Below are positions 13,885 through 42,728 of a DNA stretch of 64,000 bases, in pieces (the stretch's first letter is position 1; each line of letters begins with the position of its first letter). The stretch is from positions 68,146 to 132,145 of the forward strand of contig CACYQD010000014.1 in the NCBI GenBank assembly GCA_902776475.1. The letters run 5' to 3'. The DNA is from an uncultured Prevotellaceae bacterium (GTDB lineage Bacteria; Bacteroidota; Bacteroidia; Bacteroidales; Bacteroidaceae). The notes below the pieces were generated by a model. The model searched no databases. It saw nothing but the letters and a program-made list of their open reading frames with translations, and was not told the origin of the DNA. The position numbers were made by a program, and so were the translations under genes.

Positions 13885-13888
13885 TAGG

Positions 13889-26586: not shown

Positions 26587-26678
26587 CTTTTCTCTCCTTA
26601 GTGGTGCAAAAATACGACTTTTTATAAGACAATTGATAGGTTTGCTTCCATTATTGGGTTATTTTAACCTAAAAAATG

Positions 26679-28796
26679 TCAAATAAAGGACCTGAAGGTT
26701 TTCAGCACGTCGCATTTCCTGACAAATGCAGGTGTGGTTTCGCTGTTCTTCTGCACATACTCGTTGAGGTTGTACAGGGCCTTGTATTGTCGCGACTGGC
26801 GGAGGGGTTTGTAAATGTATTTGTCTTTCTCCCAGTCGAATTCTGTCTCACACCATGGGTCATAGGGGATGAAAGCCAGGGCGTACAGACTGTTAAAACG
26901 CAGGTTTCCTTTATCGGAAGCGGCACTCTCGCCGAGGAACTTGATGGCGAGGCTTACGAAGTCGGGACGGTCCTCGCGGGCGGTCTCATAGACGCTGTTG
27001 CCGTAGTTGGTGAGCCACCAGCATTCACCGAGGAAGGATGCCTGATAGTAGCGTACGGCCAAATCGTAGGCGATTTCCGGACGGGTGGCTGCGTTGGCCA
27101 ATGAGTGGCGCTCCTCCAGCTGTATCATCTCACGGCAGAAGTCGGCTTTGCGGTTTGAGGTGATTTTACCCAGGTTGGGACCATCGGTGTAAGTTTCTTC
27201 CTCGTTGTCCTTCTGTCTCACAAACCAACGGGCTTTTGTGTAGTCGCGGTGTGAGGTGTAGTAGCTGATGTTTTGCGACTCGAGGAAACTGAGCGGCACT
27301 TTCTCAAAATAGGGAATGGCCTTGCCGAACTCGCGGTTGGCGAGATACTTGGTGCCGATGAGGTCGTTGAGGTAGTCTTTGGGATAGCTGACAAACCCTT
27401 TGACATATTTCTCAAACGGATCGTCTGTGCTGCTCTGCAGAAATTTCGCATGACTGATCAGCTGCTCTGGAGTCATCTTGTCGATGATGTTGAAATAGTT
27501 AGAGTAGTAACCAGGATTCTCCTGCTGTGCGCCCTCTCCTACAATCTTGTTGCTTTCCATCATCGAGATGAGGGCGGCTGCCATGTCAGAACGGCCGTTC
27601 TCCTCGTATTTCGGCACAAGGTTGCTATACACCAGACGGTCGAGCACGTCATAGTAGTGGTTGTAGTAGATGCTGTGATCCGGGTCGGGACTGGTCCTGT
27701 CCTCCTCGTGAATTTTCCCTACGAGCCACTTGATCTCGTCGGTTATCCATTGGCTGTATTCCTTGTTGAGTTTGGCGTTTTTCACCGAGGCAACCATGCG
27801 TATGGCGCGGGCATTGTCTTTCATGCGCTGGGTGCCTTTCATGTCCACGGCTTTGTTGAGGGTTTTCATGGCCTCGTCGTTTTGACCGTAGAGATATTGC
27901 AGTTCACCCACTGCGGCCATCCACAAAGCAGGCGACAGTGTCTTGCCGCTCTTCACCAGGTTGGAGGCGTAATTGATGAAGTTGTCAACCTCATGTTTCA
28001 AAATGACACGATGGTCGAACATGTCTTCCACCAATTCCTTGTCACCGTTATAGTCGATGGTTTCCTGTGCATTGTTCACGAAGTCCTGCACGAGGTAATT
28101 GATGGTGGGAGAGTTGGGCGCCTCCTGATAGATGGTGCGTATGCCACCCAGATTGCGCATTTTGCGCATCGCCCACTTGATGCTCACCATGTCGCCCTGT
28201 TCGGCATAGATGTCGCAGGCCTCGGTGCGCCGTCCCTCATGCAGAAGTGCGCCGGCATAGATGTTGCGCATCATGTCACGATAGACGCTCTGAGGCAACT
28301 TCGAGCCTTGGTTGTTCCAGAACGTGATGTTGGCGGCATGCTGGCCAAGCACCATGTTTGCCCTCATTTTGAGCAGTTGCCACTGGGCTTTCAGACGGGT
28401 TCCCTTGTAGGCTGAGGCCGCACTTAACATGATGTTGAGGTTTTGGCGGCGTTGCTGCAATTCTTCCTTGGTGGGATAGGTCCATGACTCCTGGAGCTGG
28501 TCGGATATGTCGAGATAAACATTCAATTGCTTGAGGTAGTTGATCATTTCTTGGTCGCCCTTTTTCTTGGCGGCATTCATGATCAGCTCTTTGTTCCATG
28601 AATAATTATCGCAAGCTCCGTTGGTGTAGGTTTCCCAAAACGCGTTGAGCTCTTTCTCGAACAGGAAAGAATTCATCATTTCGCGACGGAAAACGCTGAA
28701 GAGATAATGGTTGTGAGAGTAATCTTCACCACCACAGCCCCAAGACGGAACGCCCATGATGAGCGTCAGCAAACTAAGGATGATAAATCTTCTCAT
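26679..28796 (-). CDS. Secreted 705-aa helical/TPR-like hypothetical protein
   Basis: Signal peptide ending SWG-CGG; TPR-like helices (AAVGELQYLYGQNDEAMKTL, YLANREFGKAIPYF); overlaps the upstream gene by 23 nt. Confidence 0.75.
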   Translation of the reverse strand: MRRFIILSLLTLIMGVPSWGCGGEDYSHNHYLFSVFRREMMNSFLFEKELNAFWETYTNGACDNYSWNKELIMNAAKKKGDQEMINYLKQLNVYLDISDQLQESWTYPTKEELQQRRQNLNIMLSAASAYKGTRLKAQWQLLKMRANMVLGQHAANITFWNNQGSKLPQSVYRDMMRNIYAGALLHEGRRTEACDIYAEQGDMVSIKWAMRKMRNLGGIRTIYQEAPNSPTINYLVQDFVNNAQETIDYNGDKELVEDMFDHRVILKHEVDNFINYASNLVKSGKTLSPALWMAAVGELQYLYGQNDEAMKTLNKAVDMKGTQRMKDNARAIRMVASVKNAKLNKEYSQWITDEIKWLVGKIHEEDRTSPDPDHSIYYNHYYDVLDRLVYSNLVPKYEENGRSDMAAALISMMESNKIVGEGAQQENPGYYSNYFNIIDKMTPEQLISHAKFLQSSTDDPFEKYVKGFVSYPKDYLNDLIGTKYLANREFGKAIPYFEKVPLSFLESQNISYYTSHRDYTKARWFVRQKDNEEETYTDGPNLGKITSNRKADFCREMIQLEERHSLANAATRPEIAYDLAVRYYQASFLGECWWLTNYGNSVYETAREDRPDFVSLAIKFLGESAASDKGNLRFNSLYALAFIPYDPWCETEFDWEKDKYIYKPLRQSRQYKALYNLNEYVQKNSETTPAFVRKCDVLKTFRSFI

Positions 28797-29706
28797 AGTG
28801 TTTTTGTTTTATGTGTTTGATGTTGTTCTTGCTGATATCGAAGAGGATGATTTCGCGGTTGGCGTCACTGCGAAGGCGGCTGATGGCATCCCTGACGGCC
28901 TGCACGGTGTCGAGGCTCACCTCGTGGCTGATGATGGTGTCGCCGGGGAGGATCGTGAGATTGTCGTCGTTGTGGATGATGCCGATAAAATGGTCGCCAC
29001 GCACGAGCAACTGCCAAGTGAATACCGGGTAGGCGGTGCTCAGCGGCAGGTCGTAGCCCTTGATGTGCCGCATATAGGGGGCGGCATCATCCATGTCGAG
29101 GATGGGATTGCGGTCCAACCGGCGCAGGTCGCCAGTGTTGTACATCATCAGCACGCCGCAATCCACAGGGGGCACTTGCTGCGAGAGTTGATGCAGACGG
29201 ATGGTGGCTGACAGGCGCAGACCTTTGGCGTGTGCTGCTTCCCGCAATTGGCTCAGCATCTCAAAATAGGCTGCTCGGGTGCGCTGCGACCAGTCGCAGT
29301 CTATCTGTATCTCCTTCACGCCCATCACGTCGTGGGTTTCCGACATCTGAAGCACTCGGTTCAGAATCAGTTCACCGAGGTTTTCCACTCCTTTGGCCAT
29401 GCAGTCGTTGACAATAAAGACTGTGGGAATGATTTCCACGCCCTGGGGGATGGAGTCCGCGAAACGCAGGGTGGCGTTGGGCATGACTTCTCCATTTTGG
29501 TCGATGACGACATCGAAATAGCGCAGGTAGATGCGGCTCACCTGGTTTTCTGCCAGAAAAGCACGCTGGGCGGAATCCAGTTCCCATGTCGTACTCCAGT
29601 AATAGGCCGAACGGGTCTCGACGGCGGCATTCTCCTTGCCATTGCATGACAGGAGGGCGAGAACGACAGCCAACAGGCTGAGTGGATGGATGATTCTGCA
29701 GGACAT
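28774..29706 (-). CDS. Lipoprotein with GH18-like/DUF3142-like TIM-barrel motifs
   Basis: Lipobox LLSC; AYYW, IYLRYFDV, EIQIDCDW, LSATIRLHQ, GVLMMYN. Confidence 0.7.
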   Translation of the reverse strand: MSCRIIHPLSLLAVVLALLSCNGKENAAVETRSAYYWSTTWELDSAQRAFLAENQVSRIYLRYFDVVIDQNGEVMPNATLRFADSIPQGVEIIPTVFIVNDCMAKGVENLGELILNRVLQMSETHDVMGVKEIQIDCDWSQRTRAAYFEMLSQLREAAHAKGLRLSATIRLHQLSQQVPPVDCGVLMMYNTGDLRRLDRNPILDMDDAAPYMRHIKGYDLPLSTAYPVFTWQLLVRGDHFIGIIHNDDNLTILPGDTIISHEVSLDTVQAVRDAISRLRSDANREIILFDISKNNIKHIKQKHYEKIYHP

Positions 29707-29802
29707 GACAGTCTGGTTTGTTTCCTATAGGATTTCAGGAGACAAACTTACAACATTATTTTGAAATATCAGCAATAAGGAGGCGAAAAAATGCGTGTGC
29801 CG

Positions 29803-30696
29803 TCATCGAAGACCCCAACTGTTGAGGAAAACCATGCGTTCGGTACTTTCCTCGATATCATCAGGCAGGTTGCAGAAGAAGTCGATGCCCGTGAGACGCT
29901 CCAGTTCGTCGATGCTCACCACATATTGGGTCAGACTGTCGCTGCTCCGGTCCTCGTTGATGTGCTCCACCCAGAAGCCCATGGCTTTGTAGCCCTGGCT
30001 GTTCTTGGCTAAGATGGCCATAAAGAAATACTTGGGCACGATGAGTCCTTTGGTTGTCTTCAGTAGAATCTGATCTGGGTTGTCGATGGTGCCGCCCTTG
30101 CAGACGTAGAGCGTGTCGATGGTCTTACGGTTGTTCTTGAAATAGTTGGAGACGAAATTCTCCATCTGCAACCACAAACCTGCATTGAACTTGTTGCGCT
30201 GCGGCTGCATGTTTGAGAGATAGAACGTCTGGATGTTGGCTTCGCGGCTGTTGAGGCGGTCATACGACGGACAGATGTGGCCGTGGTCGTAACCGGAATT
30301 CCAGTAGGGATCGTCTTTGAAACATGCTGAGGAGGGGATGTCGGGGTCGAAGGGATATTGCGGGTCGCCATAATACCTGCTGACATTCTTGACGTAGTTG
30401 GCGCCATCGATGGTGTAGCATGTCCATCGCTGCGATTTCTTGATGCAGTCCCATTCCACGATGAAGTTCACCCCATACTCAGAAGTGGAGTGCACGAGCA
30501 CGAGATTGTCGTCGGTGCCTTTGATTCGGGGCATCTCCAACCGGGCATACTCCTTTCGGGTGGTGGGGTTGGCGTTGGCGTTCTTTGTCTTGGAAGGCTT
30601 CTCACTGCTTCCGCCGCCATTGTCGTCGCCTCCGCTGCAACTGCAGAGAGCCATGGCGCATATTACAAAACCAATCAGAATATGAACAGGTCTCAT
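29803..30696 (-). CDS. DNA/RNA non-specific endonuclease (NucA/EndA His-Me finger), lipoprotein
   Basis: Lipobox LCSC; YDHGHICPS (DRGH variant), TFYLSNMQPQ, FNAGLWLQME, IDELERLTGIDFF. Confidence 0.92.
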   Translation of the reverse strand: MRPVHILIGFVICAMALCSCSGGDDNGGGSSEKPSKTKNANANPTTRKEYARLEMPRIKGTDDNLVLVHSTSEYGVNFIVEWDCIKKSQRWTCYTIDGANYVKNVSRYYGDPQYPFDPDIPSSACFKDDPYWNSGYDHGHICPSYDRLNSREANIQTFYLSNMQPQRNKFNAGLWLQMENFVSNYFKNNRKTIDTLYVCKGGTIDNPDQILLKTTKGLIVPKYFFMAILAKNSQGYKAMGFWVEHINEDRSSDSLTQYVVSIDELERLTGIDFFCNLPDDIEESTERMVFLNSWGLR

Positions 30697-30760
30697 AGGC
30701 TAAAAAATAGATGGTTTTTCATGTTCCCTTCTCAGAGGGGTTGTGGTGGTATTAAAAAAA

Positions 30761-30807
30761 TCAGGTGCCACTGAGCGCATATGCAACTACGCTTCAGACG
30801 CACCTGA
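30761..30807 (-). terminator. Intrinsic terminator of the L31 gene
   Basis: tcaggtg...cacctga stem with an A7 tract on its left (U tract on minus). Confidence 0.65.
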
Positions 30808-30870
30808 TGTATCGTCTCACCTGCTGGGCACGGCACGTCGGGTGCCTTCGTCCGTCTTCGGTGTATGTTA

Positions 30871-31122
30871 TTACTTCTTGATCTTGCCGTAACGGCTCAT
30901 GAAGCGGTCCACGCGACCGGCTGTATCGACAAGCTTCTTCTTGCCAGTGTAGAACGGGTGCGAGGTGTTCGAGATCTCGATTTTCACCAATGGATAAGTC
31001 TCACCTTCAAATTCCACTGTCTCTGTAGTCTTGCATGTGGACTTTGTAAGGAACATATCGCCGTTGGACATATCCTTGAATACGACGGGGCGATAGTTGT
31101 CTGGATGGATACCTTTTTTCAT
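30871..31122 (-). CDS. rpmE2: 50S ribosomal protein L31 type B
   Basis: [16 protein letters not shown]...[12 protein letters not shown]...GRVDRF; no CxxC zinc motifs; TAATTTTG box at 31173-31180. Confidence 0.97.
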
Positions 31123-31240
31123 TTTAAAATGTTGTTGTACTGTTTATTGAATCTAATTTCACGTTTGGGGTGCAAAATTACACATTTTCCTCCATTCCAC
31201 AAAATTTATCCAATGTTTTTTTCGAGTTATGTTTAAAGGA

Positions 31241-31279
31241 TGGCCCTGACACTTCACTTTTCAGTGCTGCGCAGGGCCA
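31241..31279 (-). terminator. Hairpin after the OB-fold lipoprotein gene
   Basis: tggccctg...cagggcca inverted repeat 9 nt past the stop; weak U tract. Confidence 0.5.
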
Positions 31280-31288
31280 AAGGTTCTG

Positions 31289-33070
31289 TTATGGTTTCTT
31301 ACCGACGCTGTTGCCGCCGATTTCTGCATAAGTCACTGACTTCACGCCGGGAGCACCGAAATATTTCTCGATGTTGCCGTAAAGTTTCACTTCCTTGCCC
31401 AGGTAGTCCGGGTGATCCACCAGGTTCAGTCCGGTGCGCACGTCGCCGTTGGGCAACTGCACGGGCATGCACTTGGTCACGTCCGTCTCCGAGGCCGACT
31501 CAGCGATCAGGAGGTTGGTCTTCACGTCGCAGCCCTCGGCGGTGAAATGAGCACCGCTGGAGAGCACCTGACCCTCTACATAGCCCACGATGAAGGCTTT
31601 CACATAGACTCCAGTGCCTGAGCCGGCTGCTATGGCTGCGCTCACGCTGTAAGGATCGTCATAACTGCCTGCGCCGGTTTGTTCACCGCCGCCGCCACCA
31701 CCTTGGCCGTCGTCCTCGGTCTTGCCGTTGAGGGAGTAGAGATAGGCCTTGCCAGCCACTGTCTCAGGTGTGTTGCCACGATAATTCATCAACTGACCGT
31801 AGATAATGACCTCGTCGCCGACCTTGATGTCAGTATTGCCAGCCTCGAACTTCTTGTTGCCCAGATAAAGGACGCGGAAGCAGTAGAATTCGCCGCTCTG
31901 TTTTCCATCTTCAGAGATATAGAAGGATGCGTTGCCATACGTGCCGCCTTCGGTGAAGGTGCCTTTGTCAGCGATGCGGGAAATCTTGCCTTTTACATAG
32001 ACATCGCCAGTGGTATCGTAGGTGTTGTTGTCCGTCCAGGTGAGATTTTTCACCGCTGCGGCTGCACCTGCCGGGTTATACGGGTCATTGAGCGTACCGC
32101 TTCCCTTGGCTTCACCGGTGTCTCCACCGCCGCCGCCACCACCACCTTCGCTCTTACCATTGAGCGAGTAGAGGAAGGCCTTGCCAGCCACTGTCTCAGG
32201 TGTGTTGTTGCGATAATTCATCAGCTGGCCGCAAATGATGACCTCGTCGCCGACCTTGATGTCAGTATTGCCGGATGTAAACTTCTTGTTGCCCAAATAA
32301 AGGATACGGTAGCAGTAGAATTCACCACTCTCTTTTCCGTCTTCAGAGATATAGAAGGATGCATTGCCATAGGTGCCGCCTTCGGTGAAGGTGCCTTTGT
32401 CAGCGATGCGGGAGATTTTGCCTTTTACATAGACATCGCCAGTGACTTGGTAGTCGTCGTTGCTCGTCCAGCTGAGCTTGCTTGCAGCAGCATTTGCACC
32501 TGCCGGATTATACGGGTCATCGAGCGTGCCGCTACCCTTGGCTTCACCAGTGTCACCACCGCCACCGCCGCCAGCGGTCTCGCCGTTGAGGGAGTAGATA
32601 TAGGCTTTGTTCTGGTCTGTCTCAAGTGTTCCATTGTAGTTGGTCACGATACCGCAGATGATGACCTCGTCACCCACCTGAATCTGTTTGTCGCTTTCTG
32701 TCCATTTCTTGTTGCCCAGATACATGGCGCGGTAGATGAGGAATGTGTTTTTCTCATTCCCGTCATCAGAGATGCTGAAAGTACCGTTTCCAAACTGGCT
32801 GCTGAACTCTTCCCTGATAGAGGCGATTTTGCCTTTGATGTAGATGTTCGAAGGACTTTTCTCTCCGCTTTCCAACGTCTGTGCGTAGGCGATGGCTGCA
32901 GCCACGTTGTAGGGGTCAGCCACGGTGCCGCTGCCTGCCGGATCAACGACTACGGTCGGTTTGTCATTGCTCTCTGTGGGGATGTCGAATGGTGCGGGCA
33001 CATCCTCACAGCTCGTGAATGTCATGGCTGTCGTAGCCAAGATGAATAAAGAATAAATTAACTTTTTCAT
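31289..33070 (-). CDS. Lipoprotein with three tandem OB-fold-like modules and a C-terminal DUF6359-like module
   Basis: Lipobox FTSC; four GSG...DPY motifs; repeated YVKGKI(S/A)...FYIS.DG...F..YR..YLGNKK...I.VGDEVII.G; Gly-rich linkers. Confidence 0.8.
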   Translation of the reverse strand: MKKLIYSLFILATTAMTFTSCEDVPAPFDIPTESNDKPTVVVDPAGSGTVADPYNVAAAIAYAQTLESGEKSPSNIYIKGKIASIREEFSSQFGNGTFSISDDGNEKNTFLIYRAMYLGNKKWTESDKQIQVGDEVIICGIVTNYNGTLETDQNKAYIYSLNGETAGGGGGGDTGEAKGSGTLDDPYNPAGANAAASKLSWTSNDDYQVTGDVYVKGKISRIADKGTFTEGGTYGNASFYISEDGKESGEFYCYRILYLGNKKFTSGNTDIKVGDEVIICGQLMNYRNNTPETVAGKAFLYSLNGKSEGGGGGGGGDTGEAKGSGTLNDPYNPAGAAAAVKNLTWTDNNTYDTTGDVYVKGKISRIADKGTFTEGGTYGNASFYISEDGKQSGEFYCFRVLYLGNKKFEAGNTDIKVGDEVIIYGQLMNYRGNTPETVAGKAYLYSLNGKTEDDGQGGGGGGEQTGAGSYDDPYSVSAAIAAGSGTGVYVKAFIVGYVEGQVLSSGAHFTAEGCDVKTNLLIAESASETDVTKCMPVQLPNGDVRTGLNLVDHPDYLGKEVKLYGNIEKYFGAPGVKSVTYAEIGGNSVGKKP

Positions 33071-33106
33071 GTCTATTTCGTTTTTTGTTTTATACTGAAG
33101 GATGTT

Positions 33107-33961
33107 TTACTGGGCTGGCTGGATGTCTGCTGTCGTGCGCATCAGAATCTGCCAGGTGTCGCGGTAGCGGGTGAAAATGCCGGTCACATCCACCTTTCCT
33201 GTCGGCATCACATTGCCGGCGAAGTCGGCATAGCTGCTCGTGCGGAGCACCAGACGGCTGCTGCTGATTCCCTTGAAGTTGCGGTTGGCGCAGTTGGCGG
33301 TCAGGGTCACGCTGCCGTCGGAAGGGGCATACACGGCCTTGCCGTCGGCTGCTTGCAGTTCCACGCCTTTCAAGGTCATCAACCGTCCGCAGTTCTCTTC
33401 GATGTAGCTGGCGTTGGTGAGTTTGCTTTGGTCAAACACGATGGGTTTCACCGTGTTTGGATCGGCGGTGCCGAGGGTCTTGTAATGGCTGTTCCAGATA
33501 AAGCGGCTCATACGGCTCACGTAGGTCGAACCACTGGCACTGGTGTAGGGCACGCCGATCTCACCCTGTTGGCCGTAGGCTCCGATATACAGGCCTTTCA
33601 GGTCGATGAGGATCTTCTGTCCCACGGGCAGGTAACCGAACAGACCACCTTGGTTGATGCAGACGATGAAGGCACCTGTGCCGTCGTCGATGATCACTTC
33701 GTTGTAGATATTGCCTTCGATGTCGTTGCCGATCACCGTGCCTGTGATCTTGATGTCGTCGGTCACCTCTTTCATGCCGTTGTTGGCGATGGTGGATTTG
33801 AAGGCGTCCTTCAACTGGGCGATGGTGATGATGTTGGTCTCGGTGAGGCTGGTGTTGCCGTAGGGCGACTCAGACAGGTCGGGGGCGTCATAACTGTCGG
33901 CCATGCACGAGGCCAGGATGGCCACGGTCATGATCATGAATATGTTGCTGATGGTTTTCAT
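33107..33961 (-). CDS. DUF5689-type OB-fold lipoprotein
   Basis: Lipobox LASC; ITIAQLK, ITGTVIGND..GNIY, IDDGTG, VLRTSSYADFA, TGIFTRY...QIL.R. Confidence 0.8.
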   Translation of the reverse strand: MKTISNIFMIMTVAILASCMADSYDAPDLSESPYGNTSLTETNIITIAQLKDAFKSTIANNGMKEVTDDIKITGTVIGNDIEGNIYNEVIIDDGTGAFIVCINQGGLFGYLPVGQKILIDLKGLYIGAYGQQGEIGVPYTSASGSTYVSRMSRFIWNSHYKTLGTADPNTVKPIVFDQSKLTNASYIEENCGRLMTLKGVELQAADGKAVYAPSDGSVTLTANCANRNFKGISSSRLVLRTSSYADFAGNVMPTGKVDVTGIFTRYRDTWQILMRTTADIQPAQ

Positions 33962-33973
33962 GTCGATGCGGTT

Positions 33974-36523
33974 TTAGAATCTGAGTGTCAGGTTGAGCAT
34001 GCCGTTGGTGCCGAATGCGTAGTATTTCTTAGGGTTGCGTGAGAACTTATAGGCGCGCTGATTGTTCATCAGGATGTTGTCGCCGTCGGTCTTCACGGTG
34101 TAGTCGCTGCGGCTCTGCTCATAGCCACCGGTGCACAACTTGGTGTTGTTGAGGATGTTGGTCACCGACAGGTTGATGGAGAGCTGTCTGCCGTGGGGCA
34201 GGCGGAGGGTCTTGCCGATTGAACCGTCGAGCATGAAGCCTCCCTTGCCTTTGGCCTGCTCAGGCACGTCGTAGGTGCCGTCGTTGTTGACGCGGCCCAT
34301 GGTGGTCAGTGTGCCTTGGTAGCGGTAACTGGGCGAGTAGCTCAGATAGATGCGGTCGTAGTAGTTGCCGTTGAGGTCGATGAACCAGCCACCGGAGTGG
34401 TAGCTGAGGATGAGGCTGGCTGCGGTCAGCGGGGTGCTGGCCTCGCGCATGTCCTTGTTCATCACGATGTCATCATGGTAGGTGGCTTTCGTGGAGTTCA
34501 TGTAGCGCACCTTGGCGTTGTTGGCGTTCTTCGCCTCGCTAATGGTACCGAGCACCTTGATGTTGAATGCCGAAGTCAGTTTGTAGTCGATGCCGGCCTC
34601 GATGCCGTAGTAGTTCTTCTTGATGTCGGTCAGCGATACGTAAGAGAAGGAGTTGATGTCGTCGAAGTAGAAATTCTGCCACTCCGTCACCTTATTCATA
34701 TTAATGAAATATCCGCTGATGTTGATGTGCACCTTGGAGTTGAGGAACTGATAGCCGATCTCGCTGCTGAAGAGCTGCTCGTTTTTGAGGTTGCTCACGA
34801 AATCGTTGTTCATCTCAGGCGATACGAAGGCCGTCGTGATCTGCGGGGCGCGGTATTCGAATCCGGCACCGAGCAGCACGGCGTGGCCGCCGCCCAGGTT
34901 GAAGCTGGAATTGAACTTGCCGCCGCCGCTCAGGAAGTGGGCGCTTTTGCTCTTGCCGTAGGAATAATCGGCAAACATACCGTTGCGCATACGGCCATCA
35001 CGCTGCATGCCGTCGTAGTTGACCTTGCCTGACACGCTGTAGTGGAGGATGCCGTAATCCTGGGTGTAGTTGCCCCACAGCACGGCGCGGCGGGCCAACA
35101 GGTTGTAGTCGTAACCGAAGCGGTCGTCCTCGCCGACGAGGCCGTTGCGGTTGTTGAGGTCATACTGCACGACGTCGGAGGTGGCGGCGTAGTTGCCCAG
35201 AGCATAAGTGTTGATGTTGTGGAAGATGTTGGCTCCCAGGAGGTCATCCATGGTCTTGTAGTGCATGCCCTTGTTGGCTCCCATCATCACACCCAGGTTG
35301 ATGCGCGACTTGTTGGTGAGCTGTTTCTGCAACGTCGAAGCGAGGGTGAAGTGCAGGTTGTCGTTATGCTTGGCTTCCACATAGTAGAGCGCGTCGCTGC
35401 CTTGCAAGTTGGCATTGCGGTTTGACCAGTAGAGGCGGTCCCAGTTGATCTGACGGTTGGCCTTGCTCTCCTTGAGGAAATCCAGGGCGTTGTTGAAGTC
35501 GATCAGGCACTGGGTGGTGCGGTATTGGTCATCGTCCACGTCCCAGACGTCGAAGCTGCTGCTCGGCAGGTTCTTCCAGTAGTCGGGCTGGGGATTCTCG
35601 GCATTGTTGTAGTTGAGACGGGTGCTCTTATACATGCTGTACTTGCCGAAGAGTGAGGTCACCAGGCGGGTCTTGCGGTCGATGTTCCAGTCCCAGGTGA
35701 ACAAGGCGCTGGGGGCGAAATCATTGATCACGCGAGAGTTGCGCACCTTGCCGTTCTGATAACCCCAGTAGGGGTTGTACTGGTTGTTGTTGGCGATCCA
35801 GTAACTCTCGTCGGTGGCGGCGCCCTGTGAGGCGCGCTCCGTGGGATTGCCCCACGTCATCAGCGAGAAGGAGTGGTCGCCCATCAGTTTCTGCACACCG
35901 AAATAATAAGAGAGAGAGTTGTAGAACGTGCCTTCCACATAACCTCTGTGAGCCCAGCGATAGGCGATGCTCCCGGCGAAGGCCCATCCTTTCTCGCTGA
36001 TGCCCGAGCCATAGGTGTACATGGCCCGGAGGGTGTAGTTGCGGTTGGCGCCGCTCAGCGACAACTTGTTGCCTGCTGACACCTGCGAAGGACGGAAGTT
36101 GTAGTTGTTGCTTCCACCCAGGCCTGTCATGGCATAATTGTTGTCCTCAAAAGGCAACGTGGCATCGACGTTGCGCGTCAGATTGTTGATACCTCCCACG
36201 TTGGAGTACCTGAACTGTCCAGACTCCGGGTCGTTCAATGGGGCTCCGTTGACATAGATGTCGTTGTACTTCTGCCCCAAGGCGCGGTAGCGGAATCGGA
36301 CAGGCGAGAAGAGGAATCCCACTTCATTGGCGTATACGTTGGTGTTGGAACTGAGAATGGTCACATTTTGCGACATGTCATCATCTTCACCCAACTGAGC
36401 CTCAGTGAACGTGAAGGCTGCATCGTCCAACGCACCGGTCTGCTCCAATGAGTCAACCTCCTGCGCGAAGGCAAGAGGGGTGTAGCAGAGCGCAAACACT
36501 GCTATTTTGAGCATTTTTTGCAT
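33974..36523 (-). CDS. TonB-dependent receptor-like outer-membrane protein with no SusD partner
   Basis: Signal peptide; plug-like RFRYRALG..YND.YVNG; long amphipathic strand region; C-terminal YYAFGTNGMLNLTLRF. Confidence 0.85.
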   Translation of the reverse strand: MQKMLKIAVFALCYTPLAFAQEVDSLEQTGALDDAAFTFTEAQLGEDDDMSQNVTILSSNTNVYANEVGFLFSPVRFRYRALGQKYNDIYVNGAPLNDPESGQFRYSNVGGINNLTRNVDATLPFEDNNYAMTGLGGSNNYNFRPSQVSAGNKLSLSGANRNYTLRAMYTYGSGISEKGWAFAGSIAYRWAHRGYVEGTFYNSLSYYFGVQKLMGDHSFSLMTWGNPTERASQGAATDESYWIANNNQYNPYWGYQNGKVRNSRVINDFAPSALFTWDWNIDRKTRLVTSLFGKYSMYKSTRLNYNNAENPQPDYWKNLPSSSFDVWDVDDDQYRTTQCLIDFNNALDFLKESKANRQINWDRLYWSNRNANLQGSDALYYVEAKHNDNLHFTLASTLQKQLTNKSRINLGVMMGANKGMHYKTMDDLLGANIFHNINTYALGNYAATSDVVQYDLNNRNGLVGEDDRFGYDYNLLARRAVLWGNYTQDYGILHYSVSGKVNYDGMQRDGRMRNGMFADYSYGKSKSAHFLSGGGKFNSSFNLGGGHAVLLGAGFEYRAPQITTAFVSPEMNNDFVSNLKNEQLFSSEIGYQFLNSKVHINISGYFINMNKVTEWQNFYFDDINSFSYVSLTDIKKNYYGIEAGIDYKLTSAFNIKVLGTISEAKNANNAKVRYMNSTKATYHDDIVMNKDMREASTPLTAASLILSYHSGGWFIDLNGNYYDRIYLSYSPSYRYQGTLTTMGRVNNDGTYDVPEQAKGKGGFMLDGSIGKTLRLPHGRQLSINLSVTNILNNTKLCTGGYEQSRSDYTVKTDGDNILMNNQRAYKFSRNPKKYYAFGTNGMLNLTLRF

Positions 36524-36717
36524 AAGACAATTGTTGTATTAGTGTTTGGATGCAAAGTAACAAAAATATTTTGAAAAAAAAAAGACTTCATGGTTTATTT
36601 TTTTTGAAATTTTGCGTTTTTTGTCGATAAAATTTCCGATATTTGCAGTCATCTAATGACTTTGGCTTTGCGCCTTGTCGGAGGCCGGCCTTTACTGCTA
36701 ACTAAAATCATCAATAT

Positions 36718-37758
36718 ATGAAAAGACAAACCCTGCTAATCGCTGCTTTGCTTCTGCTGGCACTCACTGTGGCAGCCCAGAAGAAATACAATGTCTATGG
36801 TGTCGGATTCTACAATCTGGAGAATCTTTTTGACACTTGTCACGACGAGGGGAAGAACGATTACGATTTCCTCCCCAACGGCACCTACAAATGGGACAAG
36901 CTGCGCTATGAGCGCAAACTCCACAACATGGCGTATGCCCTGGCCGACATGGGAACGGACATGCTGCCCATCGGATGCGCCATCATCGGTGTCTCTGAGG
37001 TGGAGAACAGCCGGGCGCTTGACGATCTCGTGGCTCAGCCCGAACTGGCCAAGAGAGGTTACAAATTCGTGCACATTGAGGGTCCCGACCGCCGTGGCGT
37101 CGATTGCGCCATGCTCTATAACCCGTCGCTCTTCACGTTCAGAGAGGCCCATCTGGTGCCCTACGTGCCCGAACTGGAGGCCGACAGCACATTCAAGACC
37201 CGTGGATACCTCACCGTGACAGGCATGTTGGCCGACGAGATGGTGACCGTCATCGTGTGCCACTGGCCCAGCCGTTTCTCCGGCTCCTTCTACCGTGAGA
37301 CGGCAGGCCGGCAGGTCAGGGTGGTCAAAGACTCCATCCTGCGTGCCGACCCCACCCGCAAGATCATCGTCATGGGTGATATGAACGATGACCCGCAGAA
37401 CGCCAGTATGAAAACGGCTTTGGGAGCCAAACCCAACATCAAGGATGTCGAAGATGGCGATATGTTCAACCCTTGGTGGAAGATCCTCGATGGAGGAAAG
37501 GGAACCCTCAGCTATCAAGGCAGTTGGAACCTCTTCGACCAGATCGTGCTGTCGTCCAATCTGCTCGACCGCAAGGGCACCAAGGATTACAGCAAGCTCA
37601 CCTACCTGAAATGCCAGATTCAGAACAGGCCCTATCTGGTGCAGGATGAAGGCAAATACAAGGGATCGCCGAAACGAACGACAGCCAGCGGCGTGTGGCT
37701 TGACGGCTATTCCGACCACCTGCCCACCGTGGTTTATCTCATCAAGGAGAAACCCTGA
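36718..37758 (+). CDS. Secreted endonuclease/exonuclease/phosphatase (EEP) family nuclease
   Basis: Signal peptide; FYNLENLFD, GVSEVEN, D.RGVDC, HWPSR, MGDMNDDP, WNLFDQI, YSDHLP. Confidence 0.92.
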   Translation: MKRQTLLIAALLLLALTVAAQKKYNVYGVGFYNLENLFDTCHDEGKNDYDFLPNGTYKWDKLRYERKLHNMAYALADMGTDMLPIGCAIIGVSEVENSRALDDLVAQPELAKRGYKFVHIEGPDRRGVDCAMLYNPSLFTFREAHLVPYVPELEADSTFKTRGYLTVTGMLADEMVTVIVCHWPSRFSGSFYRETAGRQVRVVKDSILRADPTRKIIVMGDMNDDPQNASMKTALGAKPNIKDVEDGDMFNPWWKILDGGKGTLSYQGSWNLFDQIVLSSNLLDRKGTKDYSKLTYLKCQIQNRPYLVQDEGKYKGSPKRTTASGVWLDGYSDHLPTVVYLIKEKP

Positions 37759-38375
37759 TGGCCGGTGAACCGGCGCAGGTGGAGCGGCATCCCTGGGCGC
37801 CGTTCCTGCCCGATCACACCAGGGTCCTCATGCTGGGCAGCTTTCCACCGGCTCCCCATCGGTGGTGCATGGCGTTCTTCTACCCCAACTACACCAACGA
37901 CATGTGGCGGATTTTCGGCCTATGCCTGCATCAGGACAAAAACTGGTTTGTCGATGAGGAGCACCGCACCTTCCGCCTGGAGCGGATCATTGCGATGCTC
38001 CGAGCGACCGGGGTGGGACTTTATGACACTGCCGTGGCTGTGAGACGGACGCGCAATACGGCCTCCGACAAGGACCTGGAGGTTGTGGAGACCACCGATC
38101 TTGACCGTCTGCTCGCTGATGCGCCCGAATGTGTGGCTGTGGTGACGACAGGACAAAAGGCCACCACACTTTTCGCCCAGCATTTCGGCATCACGGAACC
38201 CAAAGTGGGGGAGTCTGTCGCCTTCAAGGTAGGGCAGCGTGAGTTGCGGCTGCTGCGCATGCCGAGCAGCAGCAGGGCCTATCCCATGAAAGTGGAACGG
38301 AAGGCGGAATTCTATCAGCCGCTCTTCGAGGAGTACTTGAAACCATACAACAACAATAACTACCAAAAATCATGA
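37758..38375 (+). CDS. Uracil-DNA glycosylase superfamily protein (family 6/MUG-like)
   Basis: HPWAPF, MLGSFPP, FFYPN..NDMWRI, ASDKDL, RMPSSSRAY; TGATG coupling to the EEP gene. Confidence 0.82.
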   Translation: MAGEPAQVERHPWAPFLPDHTRVLMLGSFPPAPHRWCMAFFYPNYTNDMWRIFGLCLHQDKNWFVDEEHRTFRLERIIAMLRATGVGLYDTAVAVRRTRNTASDKDLEVVETTDLDRLLADAPECVAVVTTGQKATTLFAQHFGITEPKVGESVAFKVGQRELRLLRMPSSSRAYPMKVERKAEFYQPLFEEYLKPYNNNNYQKS

Positions 38376-38989
38376 CAATCATTGGAATAGCCGGAGGAAC
38401 AGGCTCAGGAAAAACAACCGTCGTAAAGAAAATCGTCAATGCGCTGCCTCCGCATTATGTGGCTGTTGTTCCGCTCGATTCATATTATAATGACACCTCG
38501 CACATGACGGATGACGAGAGACGGAAAATCAATTTCGACCACCCTGATGCCTTCGACTGGAAACTGCTGATCAAACAGATCAACATGCTGCGCAACGGGG
38601 AGGCCATCGAACAACCCACCTATTCCTATATCCTGAGCAACCGACTGAAGGAGACCGTGCATGTCAATCCCAAACCGGTGATCATCATCGAGGGCATCAT
38701 GACGCTCATCAACAAGAAACTCCGCGACCTCATGGACCTCAAGATCTTCGTTGATACCGACAGCGATGAACGGCTCATCCGCAACATCCAGCGCGATGTC
38801 GTGGAAAGGGGCAGGACGGTGGATATGGTCCTCGACCGCTATTTGTCAGTGCTCAAACCGATGCATGAGCAGTTTATCGAACCCACCAAGAAATACGCCG
38901 ACCTCATCATCCCGCAGGGAGGGGAGAACCTGAAAGGCATCGGCATCCTCTGCAAATATATCGAGGGCCTCGTCCCTCCAAAGGAATAA
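38372..38989 (+). CDS. udk: Uridine kinase
   Basis: IIGIAGGTGSGKTT, DSYY, NFDHPDAFDW, IIEGI, RLIRNIQRD, FIEPTKKYAD. Confidence 0.95.
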   Translation: MTIIGIAGGTGSGKTTVVKKIVNALPPHYVAVVPLDSYYNDTSHMTDDERRKINFDHPDAFDWKLLIKQINMLRNGEAIEQPTYSYILSNRLKETVHVNPKPVIIIEGIMTLINKKLRDLMDLKIFVDTDSDERLIRNIQRDVVERGRTVDMVLDRYLSVLKPMHEQFIEPTKKYADLIIPQGGENLKGIGILCKYIEGLVPPKE

Positions 38990-38996
38990 AAACTTC

Positions 38997-39503
38997 ATGA
39001 CCACACTTTTGCTCGTCAGGCATGGTGAGACCATCGACAACGTCGGTCACATCATGCAAGGACAGACACAGGGACAACTCAATGAGAACGGCATGGCTCA
39101 GGCACGGATGCTGGCTGAGCAGATGGTCGGCACCGAAATCGACGCTTTCGTGTCCTCCGATCTCAAACGGGCCTACGACACCTGCGTCATCATCGCTGAG
39201 CCTCATGGCAAAGAGGTCGTCACCACACCGCTCCTGAGGGAGCGCGACTGGGGCGATTTCACGGGTAAGTTCATCCCGGACCTCAAGGACAAGCCGTGGC
39301 CGCCCAATGTGGAATCCATGGCGATGCTCAGGCAGCGGTCGGCCGATTTCCTGGCTTTCATCCGCAATCGTTTTCCCGACCAGACGGTTCTTGCCGTGGG
39401 ACACGGCATCATCAACAAGGTCATCCAGTCGGTCTTTTACGACAAACCGGTCCAGGAGGTGCCGAGGATGGCCAACGCAGAGGTCAGAACCCTGTTGTTA
39501 TAG
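38997..39503 (+). CDS. Histidine phosphatase (phosphoglycerate mutase superfamily)
   Basis: LVRHGET, SSDLKRA, LRERDWG, AVGHG. Confidence 0.92.
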   Translation: MTTLLLVRHGETIDNVGHIMQGQTQGQLNENGMAQARMLAEQMVGTEIDAFVSSDLKRAYDTCVIIAEPHGKEVVTTPLLRERDWGDFTGKFIPDLKDKPWPPNVESMAMLRQRSADFLAFIRNRFPDQTVLAVGHGIINKVIQSVFYDKPVQEVPRMANAEVRTLLL

Positions 39504-39510
39504 AAAAAAT

Positions 39511-39535
39511 GCGGAGCGGGCACTGCCCGCTCCGC
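39511..39535. terminator. GC-rich hairpin ending the EEP-udk operon
   Basis: gcggagcgggc-act-gcccgctccgc, 7 nt after the phosphatase stop. Confidence 0.65.
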
Positions 39536-39543
39536 TTGCATTG

Positions 39544-39581
39544 AATAACTACATTCATTAATAACTACATTCATTAATAAC
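39544..39581. repeat. 16-bp tandem repeat (2.4 copies)
   Basis: aataactacattcatt x2 + aataac. Confidence 0.8.
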
Positions 39582-39676
39582 CAATCCTGAAATAACAATC
39601 TTTTACCTTAATATTCCTAATACCTGCATCGCATAATCAGATTGTAGTATGTATGTATTCGAGTGATTCGTGGATA

Positions 39677-40891
39677 TTATCTTCTTCCACCGAAGCCACC
39701 TCCGTGACCACCGCCACTGTGTCCGCCGCTGTGTCCGCCGCCGAACGATCTGCCTCCGCCATGGCTTCCACCGCTGAACGAACTGCCGCCGCGACTGCTG
39801 CTACCGCTGCTGAACGAACGGCTGGGTGCTGATGACGACCTGCTCATGCTCGATGAGGAGTGAGAGGGACTTGATGAGATGCTCCGTGAGGAGGAGGGAG
39901 AGGAACTGCGGCTTGAGGAGAAGGTGCGGGAGGGGTTGCTGAAGGTGCCTACAGAAGAGTGGGAACCTGATGGTCTGCTGCCCACGCTCGAACTGCTGCT
40001 CGGACGGTTCGTGCTGCTGCCGATCCGTGACCTTTCGCCGCTGTTGCTGCTGGCACCCGGAGTCATCCGTGTGCTGCTCTCACGGCTGCCGTTGTTGCGG
40101 AAAGTCCTCATGCCCTGGTCGCTGGTGTTGTTGCGCACGCTGCCGGGATTGGTGCGGGTGGTGGCGTTGCCATTGCCGAAACGGCTGTTGTTGCTGCCGT
40201 TCGTGATGCCGCCGTTGCCGGGACGTCCGCCGTTGTTGCCGCCATTGCGACCGTTGCCATTGCCGAAGTGACTGCCGGTGCTGCCGCCACTGCGACTGCC
40301 GTTGCCATAATGGCCTCCGTTGCCTCCATGTCCGCCATGTCCACCATTGTGTCCGTAGTCACCGCGGTCATATCTGTCGCGCATGCCGTGTCCACCGTGT
40401 CCGTTGTTTCTTCCGTGTCCGCGATGGCCGAAGTCACGTCCGTGATACCAGCTGCGTCCACCGTTCATTCTCCAACTGTGTCCGCCGCGATAGACGGTCC
40501 AGAAGTGAGGACGTCCGAAGTAGAAGAAGTCACGATAGGGATAGCGTGCATAGATGCCGAAGTGCCAGTAGCCAGCCTCCCAGTAGAGGGGACGGTAGAA
40601 ATACCTTGCTGCGAGATAGGCTTCATATTGCCAGTCAAGCAGGATATAGCTCAGGTCCATATTGCGCTGTGTCCAATAGACTCCATAAAGGTCGGCTTGG
40701 GTATTGACGCTCATCAGGTAGTCAAGGTTCACCTCGTAGGCAGCCTCATACTGCTCTTCCGTCAGGTTGAGCTCATAGGCCATCTTGTCGGTGAGGAACA
40801 AAGCCTGCTGCCGGGCCTGCTCGTAACTCATTGCGCTTGCTGAGATGTTGATGGTCAGCAGTGCGATCATGGCTATCAGAATTCTTTTCAT
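39677..40891 (-). CDS. Secreted hypothetical protein with a helical N-domain and long Gly/Ser/Arg/His-rich disordered tail
   Basis: Signal peptide; MSYEQARQQALFLTDKMAYELNL; aromatic-rich segment; about 250 aa of low complexity. Confidence 0.8.
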   Translation of the reverse strand: MKRILIAMIALLTINISASAMSYEQARQQALFLTDKMAYELNLTEEQYEAAYEVNLDYLMSVNTQADLYGVYWTQRNMDLSYILLDWQYEAYLAARYFYRPLYWEAGYWHFGIYARYPYRDFFYFGRPHFWTVYRGGHSWRMNGGRSWYHGRDFGHRGHGRNNGHGGHGMRDRYDRGDYGHNGGHGGHGGNGGHYGNGSRSGGSTGSHFGNGNGRNGGNNGGRPGNGGITNGSNNSRFGNGNATTRTNPGSVRNNTSDQGMRTFRNNGSRESSTRMTPGASSNSGERSRIGSSTNRPSSSSSVGSRPSGSHSSVGTFSNPSRTFSSSRSSSPSSSRSISSSPSHSSSSMSRSSSAPSRSFSSGSSSRGGSSFSGGSHGGGRSFGGGHSGGHSGGGHGGGFGGRR

Positions 40892-41008
40892 CGTCGTATG
40901 GTTTTAATATGGTTTTACATTTTTCTCATTCTCACGATGCAAAGGAACAAAGAATTTCTTACCCCCGAAAAGGATTTTCCCTACTTTGGGAGGGGAAAAT
41001 CCCTAAAT

Positions 41009-41032
41009 CAAAAACCCCCTCGTCTGAGGGGG
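41009..41032 (-). terminator. Intrinsic terminator of the nucleoside kinase gene
   Basis: ccccctc-gtct-gaggggg with an A tract on its left. Confidence 0.65.
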
Positions 41033-41045
41033 CAAATCGGGAGGG

Positions 41046-42728
41046 TTATCTGTATTTAAAACTCGAACCGCCGACGAATTCACGCATGATGCTGGTGGGA
41101 GGTATCTCTTTGTCGCTGACGGGGATGAAGTAATGGATGAATTTCAGCAGCCGGTGCGCTTCGGAATATTCCGGGCAGTTCTTCGGCACGGAGGCCAGGA
41201 TGATCTCCGCATGGGTGCGGAGCACGGCAAACTCGATGTTGAGCGCAGAGTTGAACATCACGTCGGCAGTCTCCTGGAAGGGCAGGATCCACTGTTCCTC
41301 GGCCTCGCAGACGTTGGGCCACATGCGGATGGTTTCCACGGCGGTATAGGCACCTTTGTTGTAGTCGCGGATGATGCGCCGGAGCAATCGGTTGTCGTGG
41401 GTGGGAATCCAGTTGTGGTCATCCAGTGAGATGCTGGTGAGCGCCGAGATGAAGATCTTGAATTTTGCCGTGTCGGGAATCTTCTCCGTCAGCAGGGGGT
41501 TGAGGGCGTGGATACCTTCTATGATCAGCACGCAGTCGTTTTGCAGTTTCAGTTTCTTGCCGTTGAATTCGCGCTTCCCGGTGACGAAATTATATTCGGG
41601 CACCTCCACGCGCTCCCCGCGCATCAGCCGTTGCAGATGGTCTTCGAGCAGGGCGCAGTCCACGGCCTTGATGTTGTCGAAGTCATACTGTCCGTTGGGC
41701 AGCAGCGGGGTGTCGACCCGGTTGACGAAATAGTCATCGGTGGAAAAGGAGATGGGATGCAGGCCACAGGCGAGCAACTGCACCGACAGGCGCTTGCAGA
41801 ATGTCGTCTTGCCCGAGCTCGACGGACCGGTGATGAGCACGAGGCGGATGGGGTCTTTCTCCGCACGGAAACGGGAGTCGATCTCCTCGGCGATCTTCAC
41901 GATTTTCTTCTCCTGAAGGGCCTCGCTCACTTGGATGAGTTCGGAGGCATGACCCTTTAATATGGCTTTGTTCACGTCGCCGGCGTTCGACAGGCGCATG
42001 ATGACGTCCCAGTGCACCTTCTCAGCAAACATCTCGTAGGTTTTGGGCTGATCGAACTTCTTGGCGAGTTCAAGCGGGTTTTTCTTGTCGGGCACCCGCA
42101 GCAACAGTCCATCGCCGTATGGTTCCAGACCCCAGACCTTCAGATAACCGGCCGAGGGCACCAGCGGACCATAATAATAATCCACGGTGTCGCCCAACAT
42201 ATAATAGTCGGTGTAGATTTGTCCACTCGTTTCGGTCAGTTTCACTTTGTCGGAGAATCCGCGGTCGGAGAAAATCCGCACGGCCTCCTCTGTCGTCGCC
42301 TCAAAGCGGCGGAAGGGCATGTCGAGGTTGATGATCTGCTGCATACGCTCCTTGATGCGCTCCACATCCTCCACCGAGAACGACTCATTTCCTCGGCGCT
42401 TGAGGTTGCAGTAATAACCGCGCGACAGGGGATGCTCGATAAATAACTTGCTGCCGGGGAAGATGTCGCAGACAGCTTTGTAGAGCACGAAGCAGAGAGA
42501 ACGGACATAGACGCGGTGGCCGGAACCCTCCCTGGCGTCCAGAAATTCCACGTCGCGGTTCTGGAAAAGGCGGAATTTCAGTCCCTGCGAGGCGTTGTTC
42601 ACTTTGGCCGATACCACAGGGTAGGGGAGTTGGATCTCATCGGCAAATTCCTGATACACATCCAGAAGGGAGCACCCCTCAGGAAAACTTTTAGTCACGT
42701 TGTTGTTTTTGCATCGAATCTGGAGCAT
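41046..42728 (-). CDS. Nucleoside (uridine) kinase family protein fused to ThrRS-like N-terminal TGS/second domains
   Basis: SAKVNN (TGS), RVYVRSL; GPSSSGKTT P-loop, DDYF, LIIEGIHALNP, RLLRRIIRD. Confidence 0.88.
   Translation of the reverse strand: MLQIRCKNNNVTKSFPEGCSLLDVYQEFADEIQLPYPVVSAKVNNASQGLKFRLFQNRDVEFLDAREGSGHRVYVRSLCFVLYKAVCDIFPGSKLFIEHPLSRGYYCNLKRRGNESFSVEDVERIKERMQQIINLDMPFRRFEATTEEAVRIFSDRGFSDKVKLTETSGQIYTDYYMLGDTVDYYYGPLVPSAGYLKVWGLEPYGDGLLLRVPDKKNPLELAKKFDQPKTYEMFAEKVHWDVIMRLSNAGDVNKAILKGHASELIQVSEALQEKKIVKIAEEIDSRFRAEKDPIRLVLITGPSSSGKTTFCKRLSVQLLACGLHPISFSTDDYFVNRVDTPLLPNGQYDFDNIKAVDCALLEDHLQRLMRGERVEVPEYNFVTGKREFNGKKLKLQNDCVLIIEGIHALNPLLTEKIPDTAKFKIFISALTSISLDDHNWIPTHDNRLLRRIIRDYNKGAYTAVETIRMWPNVCEAEEQWILPFQETADVMFNSALNIEFAVLRTHAEIILASVPKNCPEYSEAHRLLKFIHYFIPVSDKEIPPTSIMREFVGGSSFKYR

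Follow-up and report, generated by a model that had tools for sequence, protein, structure and literature searches.

The DNA-utilization locus ddbABCDEF of Bacteroides thetaiotaomicron (Sharan et al., PNAS 2025, PMC12478041) is the described system with which the locus considered here is best compared. The latter occupies positions 29803–39503 of a 64,000-nucleotide stretch of DNA (the window; all coordinates refer to it) from an uncultured Prevotellaceae bacterium (assembly GCA_902776475.1, contig CACYQD010000014.1, positions 68,146–132,145). By analogy with the published system it is very probably a ddb-type nucleic-acid utilization locus of rumen Prevotellaceae. As a system, ddb has been described before and is widespread. 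In ddb, DdbA and DdbF are nucleases with a signal peptide of the signal peptidase II (SPII) type, DdbB is a nuclease of the signal peptidase I (SPI) type and the SPII protein DdbE has an accessory role. The TonB-dependent transporter (TBDT) is DdbC, on which the DUF5689 protein DdbD is predicted to dock; DdbD is also predicted to resemble the HIN domain, which binds double-stranded DNA. Deletion of ddb abolishes DNA depletion and the production of uracil and xanthine from DNA, and the enzymes acting downstream of DNA import are called unidentified by the authors (PMC12478041). The published subtypes Bt1, Bt2, Pv1 and Pv2 are delimited by >50% identity and >75% coverage to the DdbC reference.

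Other described systems share parts of this machinery. DdbC and DdbD are homologous to RA0C_RS04915 and RA0C_RS04920 of Riemerella anatipestifer (PMC12478041), a barrel and a DUF5689 protein respectively, both essential for natural transformation (Huang et al., Front Microbiol 2021, PMC8459023). The EEP family is labelled in the gene schema of BT3560–BT3563, and synteny of BT3560–BT3564 extends to Prevotella (Bechon et al., PNAS 2022, PMC8851478). A sequence-only reading of the window had pointed to a similar ddb locus; this locus exists, and its defining parts are all found in the window.

Components of the window locus

Nine genes lie where the sequence-only reading had placed them, as verified by the open reading frame (ORF) listing and profile searches. 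They are arranged on both sides of a 194-bp divergent promoter region (36524–36717). The first gene on the minus strand (33974–36523) encodes an outer-membrane barrel of 849 amino acids (aa) with an SPI signal peptide and the C-terminus ...LTLRF. No Pfam or NCBIfam profile matched the barrel even at E = 10, Plug and TonB_dep_Rec included, and a sequence search of the PDB was without a match. Its assignment to the TBDT fold comes from an AlphaFold2 (AF2) model and Foldseek. The model built from a 107-sequence alignment of diverse family members reached pLDDT 87.5 and pTM 0.85 (only 12 close sequences gave pLDDT 43.6), and its DSSP strand pattern and Foldseek alignments indicate an N-terminal plug and ~22 strands. 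Foldseek matched the model to TonB-dependent transporters over ~800 columns, plug included, with a best E of 3e-24; Fiu, PqqU, FhuA, BtuB and FecA were matched at E 1e-24 to 1e-21 and 9–12% identity. In the predicted structure the barrel has the TBDT fold, and its best structural neighbours are uninformative on the substrate. Residues 16–55 are disordered in the model and carry an invariant motif FTFTEAQLGEDDDMSQ (FTFTE...GEDDDM), a candidate TonB box. The TonB-type receptor without SusD, as it had been described, is thus supported by the modelled fold and by profile searches in which no neighbouring ORF matched the SusD family.

The barrel belongs to a large family (>4000 clusters at 90% identity, 1647 representatives at 50%), the members of which are named TonB-dependent receptor by NCBI. 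Among 26 diverse relatives an N-terminal CarboxypepD_reg domain occurs in 12 and Plug in 8, and TonB_dep_Rec in none. The window barrel lacks the CarboxypepD_reg domain seen in many of its relatives.

Starting 13 nt downstream of the barrel gene, the gene at 33107–33961 (minus strand) encodes a DUF5689 lipoprotein (PF18942, E 5.6e-71) without a match in a sequence search of the PDB. By homology with DdbD and Riemerella RA0C_RS04920 it could be the substrate-binding partner of the transporter. The next gene (31289–33070, minus strand) encodes a surface lipoprotein of 593 aa (lipobox FTSC, with ED after the lipidated Cys). Self-alignment resolved it into three tandem OB modules, Gly-rich linkers and a C-terminal DUF6359 domain (PF19886, E 2e-35). 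Modules R2 and R3 are 85% identical, R1 is 44–47% identical, and the match to PF01336 (39.1 bits) is to the tRNA_anti-codon OB family. By analogy with DdbE this lipoprotein is a putative nucleic-acid-binding accessory protein. Two OB-fold lipoproteins had been proposed; the first does contain OB modules, and the second is the DUF5689 protein, for the family of which the ddb paper proposes an OB/HIN-like fold (PMC12478041).

Two nucleases complete the set. The gene at 29803–30696 (minus strand) encodes an Endonuclease_NS surface lipoprotein (PF01223, E 1.6e-38) with the lipobox ...AMALCSC, acidic residues after the Cys and, in the translation, intact active-site motifs DHGH and NMQPQ; a DdbA/DdbF-like role as extracellular nuclease is suggested for it. 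On the plus strand, the gene at 36718–37758 encodes an EEP-family nuclease (Exo_endo_phos_3, PF19580, full length, E 1.6e-92), for which a sequence search of the PDB gave no match. It had been taken for a secreted nuclease; its signal peptide (...TVAA|QKK) has no lipobox Cys and is of the SPI type, which makes a periplasmic location more likely than secretion. The EEP protein is predicted to be a DdbB-like nuclease and is probably located in the periplasm.

The arrangement shares with ddb a TBDT barrel followed by a DUF5689 lipoprotein, an SPI EEP nuclease, an SPII surface nuclease and an SPII OB/DUF6359 accessory protein, as well as the absence of SusD and a logic like that of a polysaccharide utilization locus (PUL). 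It differs from ddb in the barrel, which has no CarboxypepD_reg, in the divergent orientation of the EEP gene, which heads an operon with a gene of the uracil-DNA glycosylase (UDG) family, udk and a histidine phosphatase gene, and in a gene for ribosomal protein L31 that parts the accessory gene from that of the surface nuclease. With SusC/SusD PULs it has in common surface binders, a surface hydrolase, a TonB-dependent importer and a periplasmic hydrolase, and the distinction between SPI and SPII localization; unlike them it has no SusD, its barrel is not SusC by profile, its enzymes are nucleases and no regulator adjoins it. Neither a hybrid two-component nor an ECF/anti-sigma regulator gene was found adjoining the locus.

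With the substrate, transport direction and localization taken over by homology with ddb, the following sequence of events could be proposed. Extracellular DNA or RNA would be caught by the OB/DUF6359 and DUF5689 surface lipoproteins and cut at the cell surface by the lipoprotein Endonuclease_NS. The fragments would then cross the outer membrane via the DdbC-type transporter, which is paired with DUF5689 in place of SusD, and the SPI-exported DdbB-like EEP nuclease would digest them further in the periplasm.

Conservation in Prevotellaceae and beyond

Two peptide patterns derived from the barrel were used to scan species-representative genomes, which gave 570 species, and synteny was mapped in the best 80 loci. 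All of these belong to Prevotellaceae or Prevotella, mostly rumen and gut metagenome-assembled genomes (MAGs), and the closest barrel is 91% identical to that of the window, which assigns the window to an uncultured lineage of rumen Prevotellaceae. A DUF5689 gene lies directly after the barrel gene, at a distance of ≤150 bp, in 79 of the 80. Downstream genes were counted in the 55 loci with at least 8 kb of downstream sequence: DUF5689 was present in all 55, the OB/DUF6359 protein in 43, and an adjacent pair of L31 and Endonuclease_NS genes in 36. Upstream genes were counted in the 68 loci with at least 3 kb of upstream sequence, where EEP was found in 66.

More distant loci were reached by a profile query from diverse barrel representatives, and orthology was confirmed by tblastn (EEP 38–64% and DUF5689 24–53% identity; the percentages given below for each locus are barrel identities to the window barrel). 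In a Bacteroidaceae MAG (L081, with L082 alike; 43%), genes for histidyl-tRNA synthetase (HisRS) and EEP diverge from those for the barrel, DUF5689, a 567-aa protein and Endonuclease_NS. In a Paraprevotella-type cluster (L084, with L085 alike; 44%), aldolase and EEP diverge from barrel, DUF5689, DUF6359, Endonuclease_NS and L31. L086 (46%) is built as L084, with a HepT/MNT toxin–antitoxin pair inserted and then L31 and Endonuclease_NS; the pair, of which MNT is a nucleotidyltransferase, is located at 14091–14749, between the DUF6359 gene and L31. In L087 (42%) EEP diverges from barrel, DUF5689 and a DUF5017/CBM protein, and in Thermophagus xiamenensis (L083, 35%) from barrel, a DUF5689/DUF6359 fusion and Endonuclease_1. 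Two further Bacteroidota loci (L089 and L090, 30–31%) have EEP divergent from barrel and DUF5689/DUF5017, with or without an Endonuclease_1 of the type IX secretion system (T9SS). In Bacteroides finegoldii (L095, 32.5%) a fimbrillin-family gene, barrel, DUF5689 and EEP are all co-directional. The first of these genes (722–2317 of that locus) encodes a protein annotated 'fimbrillin family', the C-terminal region of which shares 30% identity with the catalytic portion of the window Endonuclease_NS; it looks like a fimbrillin–nuclease fusion upstream of the ddb-type barrel.

EEP, barrel and DUF5689 thus adjoin in every distant locus sampled and are collinear from 91% to 30% barrel identity. Since they are kept in all distant loci, they represent a phylum-wide core. 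The pairing of L31 with Endonuclease_NS predates Prevotellaceae, the two genes being adjacent in relatives at 44–46% barrel identity. Co-conservation of the genes, as checked by synteny, held in close and distant loci alike.

This recurrence bears on the simplest alternative, a chance neighbourhood in which a generic metal or vitamin TonB receptor happens to lie beside unrelated nucleases and housekeeping genes. The closest solved structures of the barrel are indeed siderophore, pyrroloquinoline quinone (PQQ), cobalamin and copper transporters, and three of the genes (L31, udk and the glycosylase gene) are of a housekeeping type. However, fold matches at such low identity are generic for any TBDT, and the DUF5689 gene follows the barrel in nearly all close loci with a PF19580 nuclease beside it, likewise in all distant ones, which is the published ddb core. 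The arrangement is not a matter of chance, because it recurs in the 570 species-level genomes and is seen in all of the best 80 loci; a chance neighbourhood is extremely improbable.

Another possibility is that the locus mainly remodels extracellular DNA (eDNA) of the biofilm matrix, with import and salvage secondary or absent. The BT3560–BT3563 operon was found by a biofilm screen, and the surface DNase BT3563 controls matrix eDNA in bile-dependent biofilms (PMC8851478); moreover, DNA is a poor nutrient for B. thetaiotaomicron (PMC12478041). Yet a transporter, its binding partner and a periplasmic nuclease are needless for matrix trimming alone and are nevertheless conserved phylum-wide together with the surface nuclease. 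In two of the mapped Prevotellaceae loci (L035 and L042) nothing is left but the barrel, DUF5689 and an OB protein (OB+CBM_4_9), the 10-kb flanks being free of nuclease, UDG-like and udk genes; both are reminiscent of the Pv2 subtype of the ddb paper, which has no nuclease. Loci of this type speak against a matrix-trimming function. L042 is that of Prevotella sp. CAG:1058 (8693–14862) and adjoins a 3-dehydroquinate synthase gene. Deletion of ddb also abolished nucleobase production from DNA (PMC12478041). Mainly matrix remodelling is therefore regarded as quite improbable.

The preferred reading, a ddb-type utilization locus, has points against it as well. The barrel matches neither the Plug nor the TonB_dep_Rec profile, and its TonB box is something we infer from a conserved motif. 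Membership in ddb is argued from family, fold and synteny, and the window barrel is 32.5% identical to its B. finegoldii homologue, the sole Bacteroides homologue compared, which is under the 50% subtype level. DNA also serves B. thetaiotaomicron poorly as the only source of C, N or P (PMC12478041), and, given this, 'utilization' may be something other than nutrition. On the other side stand the domain families, the signal-peptide types, the TBDT fold in the model and the collinearity of EEP, barrel and DUF5689. The parts list and the co-conservation of these three genes bear out the proposal of a PUL-like system for DNA and RNA comparable to ddb.

The nuclease–glycosylase–udk operon

The EEP gene is followed on the plus strand by genes for a cytoplasmic UDG-superfamily protein of 205 aa (37758–38375), the uridine/cytidine kinase Udk (38372–38989) and a histidine phosphatase of branch 1 (38997–39503). 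The junctions proposed earlier were read again in the sequence and are as described: TGATG between EEP and UDG-like, ATGA between UDG-like and udk, and a 7-nt gap between udk and the phosphatase gene. No convincing internal terminator was found within the EEP–UDG–udk operon; a GC-rich hairpin of 11 pairs (39511–39535), located between the end of the operon and the convergent next gene, is likely its terminator. Within the divergent promoter region, boxes of the Bacteroidota type TTTGCA lie at 36551–36561 (TGCAAAGTAAC, barrel side, minus strand) and 36638–36647 (GATATTTGCA, EEP side). Among 63 homologous spacers ACTTTGCA was found in 49 and GCAAATAT in 38. The two conserved TTTGCA boxes, one per direction, are best read as two putative promoters. 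A sigma-70 promoter scan gave no excess over shuffles, and Rfam gave no RNA element or riboswitch in 26000–43000.

Udk is identified at the equivalog level (NF004018, 288 bits with a cut-off of 180; TIGR00235, 266 bits with a cut-off of 220). The histidine phosphatase (His_Phos_1, PF00300, E 2.9e-37) scores best in NCBIfam with alpha-ribazole phosphatase, and its 79.6 bits lie below the cut-off of 162.9. The 205-aa protein is less easily named. It has no Pfam match and reaches 41.7 bits (E 1.2e-10) against TIGR04274 (hypoxanthine-DNA glycosylase), below the equivalog cut-off of 80. A profile search of the PDB gave 2L3F as the sole match (E 1.2e-6), deposited as an uncharacterized protein, and NCBI names its relatives 'uracil-DNA glycosylase family protein'. 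Its family has the invariant motifs LGSFPP, YPN..NDMW, TA.DKDL (TASDKDLE) and MPSSSRAYP, and motif 2 (MPSSS) is without His. UDG families 2 and 6 are reported to lack the motif-2 His, and family 6 enzymes remove hypoxanthine, not uracil (PMC5387724). Family 6 (TIGR04274; Methanosarcina HDG; PDB 2L3F) comprises the only detectable relatives of the 205-aa protein and shares with it the His-less motif 2, whereas the sub-cut-off score and the protein's own invariant motifs (LGSFPP, TASDKDLE, MPSSSRAYP) set the two apart. The protein is tentatively placed in the UDG superfamily, nearest to family 6, with a relation at the superfamily level only.

The operon is conserved in Prevotellaceae and is lineage-specific. 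Among the 68 loci with sufficient upstream sequence udk was found in 66 and UDG-like in 59; EEP, UDG-like and udk occur all together in 59, and as a tight collinear EEP>UDG>udk series in 54. The block behaves as a unit: five loci (L023, L024, L044, L052 and L054) have it inverted or moved as a whole, L062 has the same inversion for EEP and udk without UDG-like, and a 13-kb insertion in Prevotella sp. oral taxon 299 parts it from the barrel while the three genes stay joined. Four breakpoints fall between EEP and UDG-like (L029, L039, L055 and L067), and none between UDG-like and udk in the best 80 loci. Across Prevotellaceae loci udk is 77–98% identical and EEP 58–84%, the higher conservation of udk than of its neighbours being typical of a core metabolic gene. 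The histidine phosphatase gene is only loosely linked to the operon; it stands directly beside udk in 8 of the 80 loci and within 8 kb in 37 of 50.

Outside this lineage the picture is different. By tblastn UDG-like is absent from all distant loci, and udk is present solely in L088 (63%), where udk and EEP diverge from barrel, DUF5689, a 532-aa protein, L31 and Endonuclease_NS, with no glycosylase. The glycosylase–udk appendage is confined to barrels of at least about 60% identity. The main text of the ddb paper (PMC12478041) does not mention an EEP–glycosylase–udk operon, and a full-text literature search did not find one.

The suggestion that cytoplasmic salvage genes share an operon with the nuclease therefore stands for EEP, UDG and udk in Prevotellaceae; it has to be narrowed in that the operon is lineage-specific, the glycosylase occurs alone elsewhere and the phosphatase is loosely attached. 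In the simplest history, two housekeeping genes would have been captured downstream of the promoter of a ddbB-type nuclease gene in a Prevotellaceae ancestor and co-transcribed ever since; the overlapping stop and start codons and the lack of a convincing internal terminator suggest such co-transcription. Neutral operon accretion is somewhat favoured as its explanation.

A functionally meaningful co-transcription, in which pyrimidine-nucleoside salvage and possibly the handling of deaminated bases are matched to nucleic-acid import, appears possible and falls somewhat short of an even chance. If the surface nuclease cleaves RNA as well, as predicted, then expressing Udk together with the system would be a sensible salvage match, and a deaminated-base glycosylase would suggestively fit the conversion of DNA to uracil and xanthine by B. 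thetaiotaomicron. A stronger version of this idea, that in Prevotellaceae a ddbB-type operon has recruited the very cytoplasmic branch that the ddb paper does not name, is rather unlikely. In that branch Udk would trap RNA-derived uridine and cytidine with the glycosylase, and sometimes the phosphatase, co-expressed; the glycosylase would deal with hypoxanthine, xanthine and uracil in imported or salvaged material.

Several observations weigh against functional coupling. Udk phosphorylates ribonucleosides, not the products of DNA degradation. UDG-like has been lost from seven Prevotellaceae loci in which EEP and udk persist, and none of the nine distinct ddb-type loci in the sample at 30–46% barrel identity has either UDG-like or udk. 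The UDG-like family also occurs stand-alone, at 42–52% identity, in B. finegoldii, Parabacteroides distasonis, Acinetobacter baumannii and Neisseria gonorrhoeae, with no udk or EEP gene within 4–5 kb of the copies in these four organisms; in B. finegoldii the gene lies between a SusC/D pair and an arsenate-reductase-family gene. The annotated chromosomal context was provided by PLSDB 'plasmids' (NC_022111.1, NZ_CP077849.1, NZ_CP119142.1 and NZ_OY7259xx) which are in fact chromosomes or chromosome fragments: a 1.77-Mb Prevotella, 3.6–4.1-Mb Acinetobacter and 2.17-Mb Neisseria record, and Bacteroides/Parabacteroides 'plasmid 5/7/46'. Since the operon is lineage-specific and the glycosylase stands alone elsewhere, the 'wiring to pyrimidine salvage' is a plausible link that we infer from co-transcription.

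The glycosylase also enters into a further alternative, according to which the outer-membrane part serves DNA uptake for transformation, as in Riemerella, and the glycosylase would clear deaminated bases from incoming DNA. The Riemerella pair is essential for transformation, the ddb paper deems both systems homologous, and in Prevotellaceae a DNA-repair-type glycosylase is, by gene order, co-transcribed with the nuclease of the locus. The likeness extends to the shared operon of a barrel of this family and a DUF5689 protein, and to the ddbB-like nuclease gene next to it. The Riemerella barrel, however, has CarboxypepD_reg and its partner combines DUF5689 with DUF5017, and the window proteins have neither domain; both domains are present in more distant relatives of the window locus. 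Whereas transformation is the function demonstrated for the Riemerella pair, the window locus has two more nuclease and OB genes. Transforming DNA would not survive a pair of nucleases that includes a non-specific one at the surface. DNA-uptake results in gut Bacteroidales are inconsistent, no comEC or dprA was seen among the neighbouring genes examined, and the glycosylase is absent from non-Prevotellaceae loci. Transformation as the function of the window locus is considered improbable.

Ribosomal protein L31, neighbouring genes and biological meaning

The gene for L31 (rpmE2, 30871–31122, minus strand; PF01197, E 9e-28) encodes a type B protein with a single Cys and no CxxC. It has its own promoter box TAATTTTG upstream and a stem-loop with a T-run as terminator downstream (~30755–30810). 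A role as a regulated (Zur-type) paralogue was considered and ruled out by the type B sequence, by the gene's own promoter and terminator and by its 82–98% conservation. L31 is a self-contained housekeeping unit, a conserved neighbour and no functional part of the system. It does separate one nuclease gene from the others, as had been pointed out; the novelty attached to this arrangement falls away with an ordinary type B L31 that has its own promoter and terminator. In the interval 30696–30870 the L31 terminator hairpin ends ~55 nt before the start of Endonuclease_NS, with no obvious TAnnTTTG box in between. Expression of Endonuclease_NS may occur by read-through from the strong L31 promoter.

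Synteny beyond the block decays quickly with distance. Next to the end of the operon, the gene at 39677–40891 (minus strand) encodes a secreted protein of 404 aa without a family match, the C-terminal 250 residues of which are of low complexity (Gly/Ser/Asn/His/Arg); many Prevotellaceae carry the conserved N-terminal part close to the locus, in one orientation or the other. A protein of 560 aa (41046–42728, minus strand), encoded 1.5 kb from the operon, carries a P-loop domain of the PRK/uridine-kinase family (residues 299–494) and a 290-residue N-terminal region without a Pfam match. The gene, which makes this the second kinase of the udk family in the vicinity, is kept in place in one locus only, that of the closest relative (L001).

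On the other side, two lipoprotein genes (26679–29706, minus strand; 310 and 705 aa) overlap by 23 nt and encode proteins with no Pfam or NCBIfam match and faint TPR signals. The pair was considered as a part of the system and rejected: it has no family matches, stands beside the nuclease in about five loci, where it follows the surface nuclease gene (L004, L006, L010, L019 and L050), and lies elsewhere in L005.

The finding has three consequences. Most of the large barrel family escapes the Pfam Plug and TonB_dep_Rec profiles despite a clear TBDT fold in the model, which constitutes a blind spot of annotation. The EEP–glycosylase–udk operon offers a testable handle on the fate of imported nucleic acid past the periplasm, the step at which the ddb paper places its unidentified enzymes. 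The ddb-type system, judged from 570 species-level genomes retrieved with two peptide patterns, would be near-universal in Prevotellaceae and would extend the 2025 discovery beyond Bacteroides, into a family that is dominant in the rumen and in many human guts, habitats rich in nucleic acid from the diet and from microbes.

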